6,571 bases of DNA, from IMG/VR virus record IMGVR_UViG_2563366935_000003. One strand, given 5' to 3'. Of the stretch, positions 569-6,571 are shown in pieces (position 1 is the first letter of the stretch; each line of letters opens with the position of its first letter). The translations under genes were made by a program, and so were the position numbers. Source of the stretch: a virus (Duplodnaviria > Heunggongvirae > Uroviricota > Caudoviricetes). The notes under the pieces are model-generated. The model searched no databases. It was given only the letters and a program-made list of their open reading frames with translations, and was not told where the DNA came from.

Positions 569-593
569 AATTTTTTTGCATACACTTTGCTAT
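543..593. promoter_or_regulatory. Perfect 11-bp inverted repeat ATAGCAAAGTG (543-553) / CACTTTGCTAT (583-593), candidate operator in the divergent intergenic region
   Basis: Exact reverse complements separated by 29 bp, centred between two divergent RHH repressor genes; RHH repressors of this type bind palindromic operators. Confidence 0.45.
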
Positions 594-617
594 CAAATTG
601 AATACCAAAGGTGTTAT

Positions 618-866
618 ATGGCAAAGGGTGTGTCAATTTCTCCAACTACGGTAAGAATCCCTGAATCTTTACGCGAGGCTCTTGCTGTCAGAGCATCAAA
701 AAATGGTCGCTCTGTTAACTCCGAGATCGTCATGATTTTGCAAGCCGCGATTGATGAAGATAGGTCGCCAAAGTCAGTTGAGTCATTTGCTCAGCAAGAA
801 GCTGATAAATTCAAAGAGGCGCTACTTGAGACGCTAAAGACCATGTATGCTAAGGATGAAAAATAA
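618..866 (+). CDS. Mnt-like ribbon-helix-helix repressor (82 aa) with C-terminal helical extension
   Basis: MAKGVSISPTTVRIPESLREALAVRASKNGRSVNSEIVMILQAAI... carries the RHH core (NGRSVNSE) and a C-terminal helical tail (FKEALLETLKTMYAKDEK) like the Mnt tetramerisation helix; length matches Mnt (about 83 aa). ATG at 618; the upstream track extension starts at TTG. Stop overlaps the next start (TAATG). Confidence 0.7.
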   Translation: MAKGVSISPTTVRIPESLREALAVRASKNGRSVNSEIVMILQAAIDEDRSPKSVESFAQQEADKFKEALLETLKTMYAKDEK

Positions 867-1402
867 TGCTGCACACAATTCATTTCTTATGCCCTGTTAA
901 CACTGCCACTGTTGGGCAACTTCAGAACCACTGTCTCACCGCATTATCTCAAGGCGCAACTGAATTAAATATCCATATATCAAGTCAGGGAGGGGAAACT
1001 GCTGCTGGCTTTACTGCGTATAACTTTCTTAAGTCACTCCCTGTTACCGTTAGAACTCACAACATAAGCAATGTTGAATCCATAGCTAATATCGTTTTCC
1101 TGGCTGGCTCAGAACGTTTCGCAAACCCATTATCAAGATTCCTGTTACATCCTCTATTATGGTGCTTTGCCTCCCCAGCCGCCGACCATGCCAGATTGAG
1201 AGAGTACGGGAAATGCCTCGATAACGATCTTGATCGCTTCGTTGAGACGTTCAATATCGACATCGGAACCCATATTAGGTGGGCATCCCTGATAGCAGAC
1301 TCGACCATTTTGGATGCTAACAAGGCTCTTGAGCATGGCATAATTAATTCCATAAAAACTGCAAGGCTGGCATCCAATCAGGCAAACTGGTGGGTTGTTT
1401 GA
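866..1402 (+). CDS. ClpP-family (peptidase S14-like) serine protease paralog, 178 aa
   Basis: Collinear with ClpP core motifs: ISSQGG vs INSPGG, a Ser 29 residues after the GG (VESIA vs GQAASMG), His in RFLLHPL vs RVMIHQP, Asp in ADSTI vs ERDRF, and C-terminal EHGIINSI vs EYGLVDSI. Translationally coupled to the Mnt-like gene. Confidence 0.65.
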   Translation: MLHTIHFLCPVNTATVGQLQNHCLTALSQGATELNIHISSQGGETAAGFTAYNFLKSLPVTVRTHNISNVESIANIVFLAGSERFANPLSRFLLHPLLWCFASPAADHARLREYGKCLDNDLDRFVETFNIDIGTHIRWASLIADSTILDANKALEHGIINSIKTARLASNQANWWVV

Positions 1403-1427
1403 TGGGTAAATCATGATTACTCCTTAT

Positions 1428-1453
1428 AAAAAACCCACCTGACGGTGGGTTTA
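1428..1453. terminator. Bidirectional rho-independent terminator between convergent genes
   Basis: Perfect 9-bp stem AAACCCACC (1431-1439) / GGTGGGTTT (1444-1452) with loop TGAC, A-run upstream and T-run downstream; lies between the 3' ends of the ClpP-like gene (+) and the YafO-like gene (-). Confidence 0.6.
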
Positions 1454-1900
1454 GTCAAACATAGTGTTTCTAAAGTCTCTCGCATACCCTGCTAACACTC
1501 TCATTCTATTATGATTGTTAGCAGACATGTGAGCTACAGGATGAAAAAGAGCAATCAATGAATACCTGTTCTCATCAAAAAGATTTTGTGCATAAACGAG
1601 AGCGGTATTGGATGTTTTATGCCACTGCAACTTTTGCGGTGTGCTGATATCTGTGCCATTTTTTATTGGCTCAAATTTATTTTCACCAATTGCTAAATGA
1701 AGGTGCATAAGGCCTGCATCTTCAATATCAGGAGGTCGATGATAAGAGGTGTCTCTGCCAAAATAGCTGGGCAACGTTCCCGTAGACTTGTAGATGATAA
1801 AATCATCTACAAGTGTTTGTTTTAAATCAGGAAACTCAACAAAAACCGGGGAGAAAAAATAGTCAAAACTATCCTGATTATATTCCACGGTTACTTGCAT
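1451..1900 (-). CDS. YafO-family toxin-like protein (putative ribosome-dependent mRNA interferase), 149 aa
   Basis: Motifs DFIIYKSTGTLPSYFGRD, HLHLA, ALVYAQNLFDE, SLIALFHP and the C-terminal ANNHNRM...FR align collinearly with my recollection of E. coli YafO. ATG at 1900 with SD GAGGT; 8 nt downstream of the preceding gene's stop. Confidence 0.55.
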   Translation of the reverse strand: MQVTVEYNQDSFDYFFSPVFVEFPDLKQTLVDDFIIYKSTGTLPSYFGRDTSYHRPPDIEDAGLMHLHLAIGENKFEPIKNGTDISTPQKLQWHKTSNTALVYAQNLFDENRYSLIALFHPVAHMSANNHNRMRVLAGYARDFRNTMFD

Positions 1901-1908
1901 GTTTTACC

Positions 1909-2475
1909 TCAGTGGAAGTTACCAGAGTGAAACACACGAGTCCCGTGCTCAGCAAGCGCACGCAAACCAGCCATATCTACGGAACTATCAAAAACAACCG
2001 GAACACATGAGCGTTGTTTAATAAGACTATTCAGGTTGGTTACGGCAGATCTGGCATCAGCAACAACGATATAGATATCTCTTGCGATCTCTTTAAAATC
2101 AGCAGAAGCTTCTTTGAATACCGATTTCATTGCCCCTTCAAGTCCTCTCAATTGATGCTCTATCAATCGAGACTTTTCTGGTTCAATGATAGACAACACA
2201 TTGTCTACATTCTCATCGGTAGCGTTTGCAAGAACACGATAAGCGTATTTCAGCATTCGAGACAATTCTTTAATCGAAGACACCGCCTCATGAAGCTCAT
2301 CATTAGCCCGTTCACTGCTGAATGAGGATTGATGGTAAGCGTGCTGAACGTTATCAGTAACAACCACCTCACAACTGAACGCAGAAGCTTGCTGTAATAG
2401 CAAACCTATTGCGACTCCAGCTTTGGCAGCGTTCAAGCTAAACATTTCATCAATCCCATTAGTCTCATTGCTCAT
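1909..2475 (-). CDS. Hypothetical protein (188 aa), first gene of the operon with the YafO-like toxin; candidate non-canonical antitoxin or partner
   Basis: ATG at 2475 preceded by a near-perfect SD (AAGAAGGAGG); the track ORF start at 2505 is a TTG without RBS. No recognisable domain; sequence composition suggests a mostly helical soluble protein. Confidence 0.6.
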   Translation of the reverse strand: MSNETNGIDEMFSLNAAKAGVAIGLLLQQASAFSCEVVVTDNVQHAYHQSSFSSERANDELHEAVSSIKELSRMLKYAYRVLANATDENVDNVLSIIEPEKSRLIEHQLRGLEGAMKSVFKEASADFKEIARDIYIVVADARSAVTNLNSLIKQRSCVPVVFDSSVDMAGLRALAEHGTRVFHSGNFH

Positions 2476-2650
2476 ACAAACCTCCTTCTTATCGGAGATT
2501 ATCAATAGCTATGCATCCATTGAATACACGCTATGCGCAATAAGTTTACGTCACGTGATATCATTATGCAACCACCGTTCTATCACCGACTAACTTTACT
2601 CCCACTCCTATACATCATCTGGTATCCTGCGCAAAACTAAGGAGGTTGGT

Positions 2651-3001
2651 GTGAATGCTCAGTCTGTCATCATGGTTTTCCTTGGGCTGATTGTCGCAAA
2701 ACTATATCCAGACTGGTGGAAAGGGGCATTAGCTACTGTCGCCATCTATTTGCTTTTATCCATCGTTAAGCGATCACTCGCTGAGACCGTAAATCAAGCA
2801 AAACGTTTCTCATTTAAGAGTTTAATAAACTATGTTACTGGGCTTATTTTTTGCCTTTCAATTCTGATCGCTTCGGCTTTTTTGCCCGTATCAATAGCTA
2901 ATTTTTTTGGCGCACCATATGAGGTAGGTTATCTATTCTCTGTTTCCTGTCTTGCCATTGCTCTTCTTTACCTGTGGACGAGATCAAAGAATAAAAATTA
3001 G
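2651..3001 (+). CDS. Small polytopic inner-membrane protein (116 aa, about 4 predicted TM helices), function unknown
   Basis: GTG start 5 nt after a strong SD (TAAGGAGG, 2638-2645); four hydrophobic stretches (SVIMVFLGLIVAKL, ALATVAIYLLLSIV, LINYVTGLIFCLSILIASAFL, GYLFSVSCLAIALLYLW) and a basic C-terminus. Confidence 0.6.
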   Translation: MNAQSVIMVFLGLIVAKLYPDWWKGALATVAIYLLLSIVKRSLAETVNQAKRFSFKSLINYVTGLIFCLSILIASAFLPVSIANFFGAPYEVGYLFSVSCLAIALLYLWTRSKNKN

Positions 3002-3125: not shown

Positions 3126-3150
3126 TGAACCGCCCCGGGAATCCTGGAGA
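3126..3150. repeat. IS629 left terminal inverted repeat
   Basis: TGAACCGCCCCGGGAATCCTGGAGA is an imperfect inverted match to the right end at 4411-4435. Confidence 0.8.
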
Positions 3151-3179
3151 CTAAACTTCCTGAGAAAGAGGTAAACAGG

Positions 3180-3506
3180 ATGACTAAAAATACTCGTTTT
3201 TCCCCCGAAGTCCGTCAACGGGCAGTCCGTATGGTTCTGGAAAGTCAGAGCGAATATGACTCACAATGGGCGACAATTTGTTCCATTGCTCCAAAGATTG
3301 GCTGTACGCCGGAGACTCTGCGTGTCTGGGTTCGCCAGCATGAGCGGGATACCGGGGGCGGTGATGGAGGGCTCACCACCGCTGAACGTCAGCGTCTGAA
3401 AGAGCTGGAACGTGAAAAGCGTGAACTGCGCCGCAGTAACGATATCCTTCGCCAGGCTTCCGCTTATTTTGCGAAGGCGGAGTTCGACCGCCTCTGGAAA
3501 AAATGA
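3180..3506 (+). CDS. IS629 OrfA (108 aa; helix-turn-helix / leucine-zipper transposase subunit)
   Basis: [65 protein letters not shown]... is recognised as IS629/IS1203 OrfA; SD AGAGG upstream of the ATG. Confidence 0.9.
3497..3503 (+). other. Candidate programmed -1 ribosomal frameshift site (A-run GAAAAAA) at the OrfA/OrfB overlap
   Basis: OrfB lies in the -1 frame relative to OrfA and overlaps it by 4 nt; six consecutive A (3498-3503) sit in the last two OrfA codons. IS3-family elements make an OrfAB fusion transposase by -1 slippage on A-rich heptamers. Confidence 0.4.
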
Positions 3507-4393
3507 TGCCACTGCTGGATAAGCTGCGTGAGCAGTACGGGGTCGGACCGCTATGCAGCGAACTGCATATTGCCCCGTCAACGTATTACCACTGTCAGCA
3601 ACAGCGACATCATCCGGATAAACGCAGTGCCCGTGCGCAGCGCGATGACTGGCTGAAGAAAGAGATACAGCGCGTATACGATGAAAATCACAAGGTATAC
3701 GGTGTGCGTAAAGTCTGGCGTCAGTTGTTACGGGAAGGTATCAGAGTGGCCAGATGCACTGTGGCACGTCTCATGGCGGTTATGGGACTTGCCGGTGTTC
3801 TCCGGGGTAAAAAGGTCCGTACGACCATCAGCCGGAAAGCCGTTGCCGCAGGCGACCGCGTAAACCGTCAGTTCGTGGCAGAACGACCTGACCAGCTGTG
3901 GGTGGCTGATTTTACTTACGTCAGCACATGGCGGGGCTTCGTCTATGTGGCGTTCATCATTGATGTGTTTGCCGGATACATCGTGGGGTGGCGGGTCTCA
4001 TCGTCCATGGAAACGACATTCGTGCTGGATGCACTGGAGCAGGCGTTATGGGCCCGTCGACCGTCCGGCACGGTCCATCACAGTGATAAAGGTTCTCAGT
4101 ATGTATCGCTGGCCTACACACAGCGGCTTAAGGAAGCCGGATTACTGGCATCAACAGGAAGTACAGGCGACTCGTATGACAACGCGATGGCGGAGAGCAT
4201 CAATGGTCTTTACAAAGCGGAGGTAATACACCGTAAGAGCTGGAAAAACCGTGCAGAAGTGGAACTGGCCACACTCACGTGGGTGGACTGGTATAACAAT
4301 CGACGATTGCTGGAAAGGCTGGGCCATACTCCTCCGGCAGAAGCAGAAAAAGCTTATTATGCTTCCATCGGAAACGATGATCTGGCAGCCTGA
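3503..4393 (+). CDS. IS629 OrfB (296 aa; DDE/RNase H-fold transposase catalytic domain)
   Basis: [30 protein letters not shown]... recognised as IS629 OrfB; IS3-family catalytic-core signatures are visible ([24 protein letters not shown]). Confidence 0.9.
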
Positions 4394-4410
4394 GTTCACA
4401 GATAAAACAC

Positions 4411-4435
4411 TCTCCAGGAAACCCGGGGCGGTTCA
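4411..4435. repeat. IS629 right terminal inverted repeat
   Basis: Reverse complement TGAACCGCCCCGGGTTTCCTGGAGA matches the left end. Confidence 0.8.
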
Positions 4436-5593
4436 CATGATGATTGAGTCTGCGTCCTGTTCAATGCTTCCTGAATCACGCAAATCTGCGTTTGTCGGGC
4501 GTTTGTTTGGTCGCTTCTCAACATCGCGTGAAAGCTGACTCAGGGAAATAACCGGTGTTTTCAGGTCTTTCGCCATCGCCTTCAGGCTTCCGGAGATGTG
4601 AGCAATTGCGAGGTCGTTGCGGTCTGCTTTCGGCTTCTCAATCAGGCCAAGATAATCCGCCATGATGAGTGAGAGGTTTGGATTTTCCTGTTTGTGCCGT
4701 TCTGCGATTGAGCGTATTTCTTCGACCGATAATCGCGAGGCATCGACTACCCATACATCCAAATCTGCAAGCTGACTCATGCCGTTAGCAACACGTGCCC
4801 AGCCCTCGTCATCCATCGATGCAGGATTTCGCAGTACGCTAACCGACATCCTCCCGGCGTTGGCAATGCTTCGCTCTGCAATCTGCAATGCGCTCATTTC
4901 CATTGAGAAAATCAATACCCCGCGCCGGACGTCAGAACCAGGAATAACGCGGCTTGCAACGCCTTCGGCAATCTTCAGCGCCAGTTCGGTTTTCCCCATA
5001 CCAGGACGAGCAGCGATTATCACCAGGTCTTCCGCGTTCATCCCTCCGGTGATGGCATCAAGTTCTTCGATTCCGGTCTTCAGGGTATCGGACTCTTCTC
5101 CGTTCCTCAGACGCCTGTCAAGCGTGTCAGTGTAGTCGGTGATGATTTCCCCTAACCGTACAGGTTTAACCTCGTCACGGGGCTTTCTGATGGCTGAGAG
5201 ACGTTTTACAAGTTCATCCATCGCCTGACTCGATGCGTCGATGGTTCCGCTTTGGATTGGTTCACGCATTTCATCCATGATTTCCAGCACCAGACGGCGG
5301 TGATAGTTATCCGCGACCATTCCGGCATATCCCTTCAGGTTTGCGGCGCTCGGGCAGTTTTTGCTGGTCATCAGGATTGACGTGAAATGCTCCTCTCCGC
5401 ACGCCTCGGCAACCATCAGCGCGTCGATTAGGTTTCTGTTTCTCGCCTGCTTCCGGATAACCTCGAAGGCTTTCCGGTAGAGCGGAATTGAAAACGCTTC
5501 CGGCTCCAGCGTTGCAAGAACGTCACTGGCGGTTGGAGTTAATCCACCAATCAGCAGGCCACCGATAACGCTCGCTTCGATATCCTGTCTCAT
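4433..5593 (-). pseudogene. Phage DnaB-like replicative helicase, 3'-truncated by IS629 (about 55-60 C-terminal residues missing)
   Basis: 386-aa translation with DnaB N-terminal domain, Walker A ([10 protein letters not shown]), Walker B (LIMADYLGL) and the motif [32 protein letters not shown]. Reading frame stops only 3 codons after EQDAD, using the TGA formed by the IS629 terminus (4433-4435), where E. coli DnaB has about 55 more residues. Confidence 0.85.
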
Positions 5594-5947
5594 GCAATCC
5601 CCCTGTCTGCAAACTTCCCTTCCCGAACTCCCGTTAACGAGTCTTCTCTCAGCAGGTAATCAAAATCAGCCGTCCAGCCCGTGTCGTTGTCTCCGAAGTA
5701 AAACGGCTTGGCCTGATGCACAAACGCCCTGACATACGCTCTGAAACCGTCCACGTTTGGCGTTTTCAGTTGCGGGATGATTTTCTTCAGGCGGCGTTTT
5801 CGTTTCTCGTTGACCGCAACAGCGTGTGGCAGTCTGTCACCGACTTCGGTGTTGTAGGCGTTCAGGAAGGATTCGTAGTCGATTCGTTCTGCCTTGCGAC
5901 GTTCAGGTTTAACCTGCCCATCGCCTCCCCCATTGGGGGGTAGGGGG

Positions 5948-5975
5948 GTATTATTTATATTCTTGTTAATACCTT
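5948..5975. other. AT-rich stretch adjacent to the iterons (candidate DNA-unwinding element), next to a G/C-rich near-palindrome CCCCCATTGGGGGG (5926-5939)
   Basis: attatttatattcttgttaatacc is strongly AT-rich relative to its surroundings and lies immediately downstream of the iterons in the gene's direction, mirroring ori-lambda organisation. Confidence 0.4.
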
Positions 5976-5980
5976 CTTGT

Positions 5981-6110
5981 TCATGATGTGCGGTTGTTTG
6001 TGCGGCTTCATGTGCGCTTTCATGTGCGGCATGTACGCTGAAAGCCGCGCTATTGCTGGCTTCATCATGTGCGGCATCATGTGCGGTTGTTTGTGCGGCT
6101 TCATGTGCGG
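5981..6110. repeat. Iteron array (candidate phage replication origin): about 8 copies of a 12-bp unit, consensus yTTCATGTGCGG, in two clusters; includes an exact 31-bp duplication (5986-6016 and 6079-6109)
   Basis: Directly visible tandem periodicity: tgtgcggttgtt / tgtgcggcttca / tgtgcgctttca / tgtgcggcatgt ... catgtgcggcatca / tgtgcggttgtt / tgtgcggcttca / tgtgcggg. Lies inside the initiator gene, as ori-lambda lies inside O. Confidence 0.6.
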
Positions 6111-6354
6111 GTAAATTGTCCATTTTTTGAGCATATTCATGGTAATTTGTGATGGTTATCACACGGCCTTTTTGCTTCTCTCCATCAATGGAGATCATCC
6201 CCTCTTTCACAAAAACCTGAAGCATCCGCTCAACCTGATCACGGCTTGCTGGCTTGCCATGTCTGTCGCATAACTGAAGACCTAAATCAGCTGCTGTCAC
6301 AACCAGTTGACCGGGTTGCAGATGCCATTCATGACCTTTGAAATTCGCTTTGTA

Positions 6355-6571
6355 TGAACCGCCCCGGGTTTCCTGGAGAGTGTTTTATCTGTGAACTCAG
6401 GCTGCCAGATCATCGTTTCCGATGGAAGCATAATAAGCTTTTTCTGCTTCTGCCGGAGGAGTATGGCCCAGCCTTTCCAGCAATCGTCGATTGTTATACC
6501 AGTCCACCCACGTGAGTGTGGCCAGTTCCACTTCTGCACGGTTTTTCCAGCTCTTACGGTGTATTACCTCC
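6355..6571 (-). mobile_element. IS629 3'-terminal fragment in inverted orientation, truncated by the window edge
   Basis: 6355-6571 is the exact reverse complement of 4219-4435 of the complete copy; the terminal IR begins at 6355 (TGAACCGCCCCGGGTTTCC...). Confidence 0.9.
6397..6571 (-). CDS. IS629 transposase OrfB, C-terminal fragment (minus strand, partial at window end)
   Basis: Reverse complement is identical to the 3' end of OrfB; stop codon is at 6397-6399 on the minus strand. Confidence 0.85.
   Translation of the reverse strand, partial: EVIHRKSWKNRAEVELATLTWVDWYNNRRLLERLGHTPPAEAEKAYYASIGNDDLAA

Follow-up and report, generated by a model that had tools for sequence, protein, structure and literature searches.

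A YafO-family toxin gene of temperate phages is strictly linked to an upstream gene for a candidate antitoxin unrelated to YafN

The window analysed here, a stretch of 6,571 nucleotides (nt) from a virus of the Caudoviricetes (IMG/VR record IMGVR_UViG_2563366935_000003), carries on its minus strand a cassette of two genes, the first encoding a protein of 188 amino acids (aa) and the second a protein of 149 aa that belongs to the YafO toxin family. Open reading frame calling places the 188-aa partner gene at 2475..1909 (1909..2475 in plus-strand numbering) and the toxin gene directly behind it at 1900..1451 (1451..1900). The partner gene starts with an ATG located 5 nt past a strong AAGGAGG Shine-Dalgarno sequence (2487..2481). 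The junction between the genes reads CAC-TGA-GGTAAAAC-ATG and leaves a gap of 8 nt, in which the TGA stop codon of the partner overlaps the GAGG Shine-Dalgarno sequence of the toxin gene (1901..1911, minus strand). Because the stop codon thus forms part of a Shine-Dalgarno sequence located 8 nt before the toxin start, the two genes are predicted to be translationally coupled, which agrees with the linkage proposed for them in the initial annotation. The same TGA-GGT-N5-(A/T)TG layout was observed in 16 of the 30 junctions listed, the remaining 14 having gaps between -4 and 16 nt. In this listing many toxin genes of the branch to which the window belongs begin with TTG, and the partner genes with AAGGAG(G) and ATG.

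Directly after the toxin stop codon lies an intrinsic-terminator-like hairpin (1427..1452, minus strand; ACCCACC-GUCA-GGUGGGU followed by six U residues). Its 9 base pairs (bp) with a GC-rich core fold with -15.5 kcal/mol (z -2.9), and none of 200 shuffled sequences folded equally well. The hairpin is common to the cassette and a convergent ClpP-like gene, which meet tail to tail. On the 5' side the cassette is followed by a divergent intergenic region of 175 nt and then by a gene for a 116-aa protein running in the opposite direction, and the hairpin (1452..1427) and this region are the two operon boundaries that had been suggested earlier. A putative sigma-70 promoter of the cassette may be located at 2543..2571 (minus strand; TTGCAT at 2571-2566, a 17-nt spacer and TAAACT at 2548-2543). 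It lines up with the conserved promoter TTGCTC-17-TATTAA of related loci; only 8 of the 12 consensus positions match, and the consensus scan did not report it. The 5' leader that would follow (2476..2542, minus strand) contains, in addition to the AAGGAGG at 2487-2481, the complementary sequence UCUCC at 2498-2494. The search for an operator in the cassette promoter region yielded none, the sole inverted repeat there being formed by the two divergent Shine-Dalgarno sequences.

Several further sequence elements were observed in these regions. A CUCC and a GGAG separated by 8-10 nt, conserved between the window (2481-2498, minus strand) and 13 related loci, could fold and thereby mask the Shine-Dalgarno sequence of the partner gene; the pairing is present and invariant in all 14 aligned loci, so that covariation neither supports nor refutes it. 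In a sister branch (loci L003, L005, L006, L010, L011, L013, L021-L024 and L030-L032 of our collection) the conserved promoter TTGCTC-17-TATTAA is found at a distance of about 125 nt from the partner gene, on its 5' side. The leader of this branch, about 95 nt long, contains a GC-rich hairpin (GCCGAAG...CTTCGGC) followed by a U-tract, with compensatory changes in six pairs; to judge from its sequence this hairpin looks like a leader terminator or attenuator, and it is missing from the window's branch. The toxin gene itself contains, at 1786-1814, a perfect palindrome (13 bp, loop of 3 nt) that spans the codons for VDD-F-IIY and was flagged by the scan as a terminator on the plus strand. It was rejected as a regulatory element: the Salmonella-type allele has a weaker form of it and other loci have none, and since it is not conserved outside the window's allele it is probably incidental.

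The two genes were found together in every related locus whose flanks could be read. A partner-anchored scan of GTDB genomes and IMG/VR loci returned 24 loci, all 24 with the toxin gene downstream, and a toxin-anchored scan returned 79 IMG/VR loci, 65 of them with DNA upstream of the toxin; in all 65 the partner gene was located immediately 5' of the toxin gene. The pair was also intact in all loci reached via protein look-ups. Three toxin relatives (57-71% identical) have immediately upstream a gene of the partner family, 190, 190 and 249 aa long as called, and these partners are 34-38% identical to that of the window and clearly homologous. Immediately downstream of the genes for two distantly related partners (about 24% and 19% identical), a YafO_toxin gene was found in each case. 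Altogether 51 distinct pairs were collected, or 29 once near-duplicates had been removed, and in none of the 51 was a YafN-type partner present. Among 5,426 complete E. coli genomes, 55 (about 1%) carry the window's allele with both genes and none carries one gene alone, the sole other matches being to the 33-nt terminator; a second allele, with a toxin 40% identical, is present in 48 complete E. coli genomes (about another 1%). Because the adjacency is kept in every related locus examined, it is not due to chance.

The hosts of the cassette include Escherichia, Salmonella, Proteus, Serratia, Buttiauxella, Acerihabitans and Pseudomonas. Many E. coli chromosomes contain the region of the window with 100% identity. 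In strain S88 it is part of a P22-like prophage inserted at the tRNA-Arg/intS site, and there the cassette occupies the immI region, with the gene for the gp16 ejection protein on one side and mnt/arc/ant on the other. The prophage moron that the initial annotation had considered was thereby found in a defined place. At other loci the position differs: in one locus the cassette is part of a late operon, with the Q antiterminator gene on one side and the holin gene on the other; it is located between the portal/Mu F genes and the tape-measure gene in another, between the tape-measure and minor-tail genes in phage HK639 (genes HK639_17/18), next to the integrase gene in a Pseudomonas prophage, and, as the second allele, at the very edge of a prophage adjoining zur in strain E138 (locus L115). 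Since it is found at unrelated positions in different phages, the cassette moves as a two-gene unit, and the strict conservation of the pair across these contexts strengthens the case for a dedicated partner. A third regulator gene conserved beside the cassette was not found in the contexts with listed genes. Many predicted prophage boundaries in IMG/VR (L058-L088 and similar loci) start exactly at the partner or toxin gene of the second allele; probably, the position of the cargo at the prophage edge makes boundary-calling software split the pair.

The 149-aa protein had been likened to YafO on the basis of shared motifs, and a search with the Pfam profile gave firm ground to this likeness. 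The match to PF13957 (YafO_toxin) scores 78.9 bits (E 3.4e-22) against a cut-off of 25 and covers residues 37-145, corresponding to profile positions 3-101 of 101. To YafO from E. coli K-12 the protein is 38% identical over 120 residues (E 7e-20), and the two have the motifs DF..YK, FGRD..Y, H66 (H.HL), LVY and P121..H124 in common. In an alignment of 13 sequences including K-12 YafO, the positions D33, F34, Y37, K38, F47, G48, D50, Y53, H66, Q92, L101-V102-Y103, P121 and H124 are invariant. By its sequence the protein is a true member of the YafO family. It reaches 79 bits with the NCBIfam equivalog model NF007377, whose cut-off is 153, and is thus not equivalent to K-12 YafO by this measure; because of this score and of a clade-specific N-terminal segment of about 28 residues, we class it as belonging to a sister subfamily, neither equivalog nor ortholog. 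It is a full-length member of phrog_1651 (162.7 bits), and a sequence search of solved structures gave no match. RefSeq already labels the gene as encoding a "type II toxin-antitoxin system YafO family toxin", and therefore it is only the partner that has gone unrecognised.

For the partner, neither Pfam nor NCBIfam nor PADLOC contains a matching family. No similarity to YafN was found with BLASTP (E 36) or hhalign (probability 0.3%), and Pfam detected no Phd/YefM domain, so that a fused or extended YafN, which would have overturned the earlier claim of an unrelated upstream protein, could be ruled out. A DNA-binding domain, which the initial annotation had likewise failed to recognise, was not detected. 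The protein is a full-length member of phrog_8416 (322.2 bits), a family of unknown function, and diverse partners fall into phrog_8416 or phrog_22162. The family is small: a word-indexed search of 5.8 billion proteins found six partner clusters, and of 1.84 billion representatives searched exhaustively with a profile, 23 proved to be members, 20 of which are 137-190 aa long (the exceptions having 77, 92 and 249 aa). The AlphaFold2 model (pLDDT 73) is all helical, with an N-terminal helix (16-38), a low-confidence linker (36-53), long confident helices (54-156) and a C-terminal region of low confidence containing one short helix. Together with the family alignments this divides the protein into a hydrophobic N-terminal helix (about 12-35), a variable linker, a predicted helical bundle (54-156) and a tail (157-188), which is the best-conserved segment of all. 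A Foldseek comparison of the model with viral structures returned nothing at E 0.001 or better, and sequence and profile searches of the PDB with the partner gave chance matches only.

The two proteins have diverged together. Their pairwise identities correlate with r = 0.82 over 406 comparisons, which are not independent of each other, and in 99% of these the partner is less conserved than the toxin (mean identity 30% versus 48%). In comparisons with unsaturated synonymous sites, the ratio of non-synonymous to synonymous substitution rates (dN/dS) lies at 0.06-0.16 in the partner gene and at 0.03-0.23 in the toxin gene; purifying selection acts on both. The lower conservation of the partner corresponds to the usual pattern of antitoxin and toxin. 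The co-divergence, the dN/dS values and the pattern of junctions and start codons fit a toxin with a cognate neutraliser that is made more abundantly. In one comparison (L003 with L023) the usual pattern is reversed, the toxins having diverged more than the partners (non-synonymous divergence 0.26 versus 0.14), which suggests occasional recombination between partner and toxin alleles inside the cassette.

The explanation that we favour, and in which we place about as much confidence as doubt, is that the pair is a phage-carried cassette of the type-II-like toxin-antitoxin or abortive-infection kind, with a neutraliser that has no DNA-binding domain. The generic layout of type II systems is present here, with a two-gene operon, a short junction, a toxin of a recognised family and a terminator after it, as are joint inheritance and co-divergence with a faster-evolving upstream gene. 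We infer from the sequences that the cassette would be a self-contained two-gene cargo of temperate phages, the downstream gene encoding a YafO-family endoribonuclease that would cleave mRNA and so arrest translation. The helical protein of about 180 aa from the upstream gene would be made first and in excess, since it has a strong Shine-Dalgarno sequence and an ATG as compared to the coupled, weaker start of the toxin. It might hold the toxin inactive through direct binding, most likely via the conserved C-terminal tail, which is predicted to be unstructured alone. As the partner has no DNA-binding domain and no operator was found, it would presumably not repress its own promoter, a mode of regulation unlike that of YafN; the level of expression would rather depend on a constitutive promoter and on the mRNA leader. 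If the supply of the partner failed, possibly upon host shut-off by a superinfecting phage or upon loss of the prophage, free toxin would shut down translation, and the outcome could be an aborted infection or a stabilised prophage.

The closest known system is yafN-yafO in the dinB operon of E. coli K-12. There, the protein encoded upstream neutralises YafO, which is toxic (PMC2814082), and growth arrest and mRNA cleavage by the toxin have been reported (PMC2814082, PMC8546651), its dependence on the ribosome being disputed (PMC8546651). Repression by YafN of its own promoter and a dependence of its effect on Lon have been described (PMC2814082); nothing suggests either for the cassette described here. 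Both systems have a toxin of PF13957, with 38% identity and the motifs given above, and in both the partner gene comes first and the toxin gene second after a very short gap. However, YafN is a Phd/YefM-type protein of 97 aa, whereas the partner here is unrelated, about twice as long, all helical in the model, without a detected DNA-binding domain and with an N-terminus resembling a signal peptide. In addition, the toxin has the N-terminal segment of about 28 residues and the equivalog score below the cut-off, and the cassette is phage-borne and lies outside the SOS-regulated dinB operon. Another system for comparison is epsilon/zeta, in which the antitoxin epsilon, a small bundle of helices, neutralises through binding alone, regulation being left to the separate regulator omega. 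The partner described here is also modelled as a helical bundle and also has no DNA-binding domain, but it shows no sequence relationship or specific fold relationship to epsilon, no third regulator gene is conserved and the toxin is of another class.

Several observations weigh against the reading as a toxin-antitoxin cassette. The partner is, with about 180 aa, about twice as long as YafN, and the missing DNA-binding domain is at odds with the YafN type. PADLOC-DB 2.0 has no defence-system model that matches the toxin, and the single match of the partner in PADLOC, to a ZorA tail (E 0.0039, 14 bits), is at chance level. The AlphaFold2 model of the 149-aa protein (pLDDT 53) is too poor for a search for the putative RelE-like (BECR) fold. 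Furthermore, the correlation of identities could reflect co-inheritance alone. The weightiest point concerns the N-terminus of the partner, which in all 29 non-redundant partners resembles a signal peptide according to our heuristic criteria; such an N-terminus throughout the family is hard to reconcile with a cytoplasmic antitoxin.

The alternative that draws on this N-terminus is unlikely in our estimate but survives best among the rivals: the partner would be exported through Sec or tethered to the envelope and would not be a classical cytoplasmic antitoxin. The pair could then be an envelope-linked exclusion or abortive-infection system, or a toxin-antitoxin module that disposes of its neutraliser through export instead of proteolysis. 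If the partner is exported it could not sequester a cytoplasmic RNase, and therefore the classical antitoxin model would fail. In each of the 29 partners, an uncharged run of 15-33 residues with a peak hydropathy of 2.0-2.8 is found within the first 45 residues and is followed by small residues at -3 and -1, at sites such as A-x-A. The peak hydropathy is comparable with that of the MalE signal peptide. These values come from a heuristic assessment, which tempers the argument for export. The n-region is net positive in 19 of the 29 partners, and distant members look like textbook signal peptides (with a slash marking the site, ...CGPLACPAAMA/QEF and MNLSLRNCLAVVLFGGVLSVPSFSA/G, the latter ending in ...VPSFSA/G). 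The physico-chemical pattern persists despite the divergence of the sequences, and in the AlphaFold2 model the low-confidence linker (36-53) parts the N-terminal helix from the bundle. A hand sum on a biological hydrophobicity scale suggests that the segment is too polar for a stable transmembrane anchor.

Other features of the N-terminus speak against export. The clade of the window has an acidic N-terminus (MSNETNGIDEM, net charge -2) and a short hydrophobic core (AGVAIGLLL), both of which disfavour Sec, and the N-terminal helix is conserved in sequence (GLLxQQ) beyond what signal peptides usually show. The predicted translational coupling to a cytoplasmic toxin rather suggests that a complex is formed, and a full-text phrase search of the literature found no description of an exported or membrane-bound antitoxin. 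The location of the cassette is again in favour of an envelope function, since P22 carries its membrane exclusion gene sieA at the same position, between gp16 and mnt. SieA of P22, encoded in immI, and gp15 of HK97, encoded beside the tape-measure gene, are single membrane proteins that block DNA entry. The cassette shares with these morons the insertion hot-spots (gp16-mnt/arc in the window, tape-measure/minor-tail in HK639), it has a terminator of its own and, as inferred from sequence, its own promoter, and the partner may be associated with the envelope. Unlike them, it consists of two genes including one for an RNase-family protein, and it has no homology to either.

Rather improbable is a helper role of the partner, as chaperone, activator or specificity adaptor of the RNase and not as its inhibitor, with the pair serving the development of the phage, for example by degrading host mRNA after induction. 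Strict linkage and coupling would suit any obligate two-subunit system, and the absence of a DNA-binding domain and of an autoregulatory operator, as well as the loci in the late operon (Q antiterminator/holin) and inside the structural-gene region, are compatible with such a role. On the other hand, related loci have a promoter of their own, and the window has a candidate promoter and a terminator, as found for morons expressed in the lysogen. Moreover, inhibitors typically evolve faster than the enzyme, as the partner does here, and YafO of K-12 is toxic without a cofactor (PMC2814082).

Still less probable is a combination of both functions, in which the partner would be the neutraliser and at the same time carry a working Sec signal peptide. 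The antitoxin would then be cleared by export and not by Lon/Clp proteolysis, or an envelope-exposed domain would sense the entry of a phage. Any block of synthesis, for instance host shut-off by a phage, would in this case quickly free the RNase, and if the N-terminus does function as a signal peptide a new mode of toxin control would be at hand. That the genes are functionally unrelated and merely co-transcribed neighbours, or that the YafO-like gene is an inactive relic, is strongly disfavoured: the equivalog score below the cut-off would agree with it, but the linkage is 100% over 51 distinct pairs in unrelated contexts with a conserved junction, dN/dS is well under 1 in both genes, and the His and Asp motifs that the toxin has in common with K-12 YafO do not vary.

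YafO is among the least understood RNase toxins of E. coli. A review counts about 1,000 members of PF13957 with the gene order antitoxin-toxin and cites only the K-12 study (PMC11980606), and a survey of E. coli lists 13 partner clusters for YafO_toxin, 8% of which are known antitoxins (PMC10790755). YafO genes have been reported in surveys of prophages and tailocins without mention of the upstream partner, one of these discussing toxin-only prophages (PMC10449497, PMC4684702). A literature search by accession, locus tag or PHROG identifier found no mention of the genes, and phrog_1651 for the toxin and phrog_8416 and phrog_22162 for the partner, of which the proteins are full-length members, are families without functional annotation for which the pairing is unrecorded. 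The partner family and its obligate pairing are not described in the literature that was searched; the toxin is already annotated and is a new member of a known family. With a phage YafO clade that is always preceded by one specific unannotated protein, helical in the model, phrog_8416 and phrog_22162 become a candidate antitoxin family. A simple annotation fix follows from this, and the cassette is a compact two-gene candidate for anti-phage defence.

The surroundings of the cassette show a P22-like prophage that has been broken up by insertion sequences (IS). In strain S88 an acyltransferase gene is located just inside the integrase gene and before the tailspike gene, and we take a prophage with an acyltransferase in this position to be of the CUS-3 type. 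The antisense RNA sar of P22 was detected by Rfam at 119-185 on the plus strand (83.9 bits, gathering score 43), which confirms the placement in immI. It lies just inside the end of an IS, and the neighbouring ant gene is cut off by the IS insertion. Three copies or ends of IS3-family elements (IS629-like) are present in the window, at 1-95, about 3126-4435 and 6355-6571; the left end repeats the full copy in direct and the right end in inverted orientation, and the full copy contains an ALIL frameshift pseudoknot (3461-3577, 120 bits). The IS copies have cut and rearranged the prophage in the window and left the cassette untouched.

On the 3' side of the cassette, an Arc/Mnt-like ribbon-helix-helix gene (96 aa) is translationally coupled to the gene for a ClpP-like protease of 178 aa (576-1402, plus strand), and this pair is convergent with the cassette. 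The ClpP-like protein matches the Pfam family CLP_protease (E 2e-11) and by eye has apparently kept the Ser and His of the catalytic triad; such a gene is unusual for the immI region. As a protease acting on the antitoxin it was considered and rejected: it is not part of the cassette, since it is absent from the other contexts with listed genes. The divergent gene on the other side (2651-3001, plus strand), which adjoins the gp16 ejection gene, encodes a 116-aa protein (109 aa as called in RefSeq) with hydrophobic stretches and family matches at chance level only; in P22 this place is taken by the exclusion gene sieA. Beyond the full IS copy, part of the replication module of the prophage is left on the minus strand (4433-6300), with IS copies on both sides. 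Its DnaB-like helicase is truncated at the C-terminus (the DnaB_C match covers profile positions 2-210 of 255) and its O-like initiator at the N-terminus (the phrog_345 match covers positions 77-295 of 297), and iteron-like direct repeats are found at 5982-6109 within the O-like gene.

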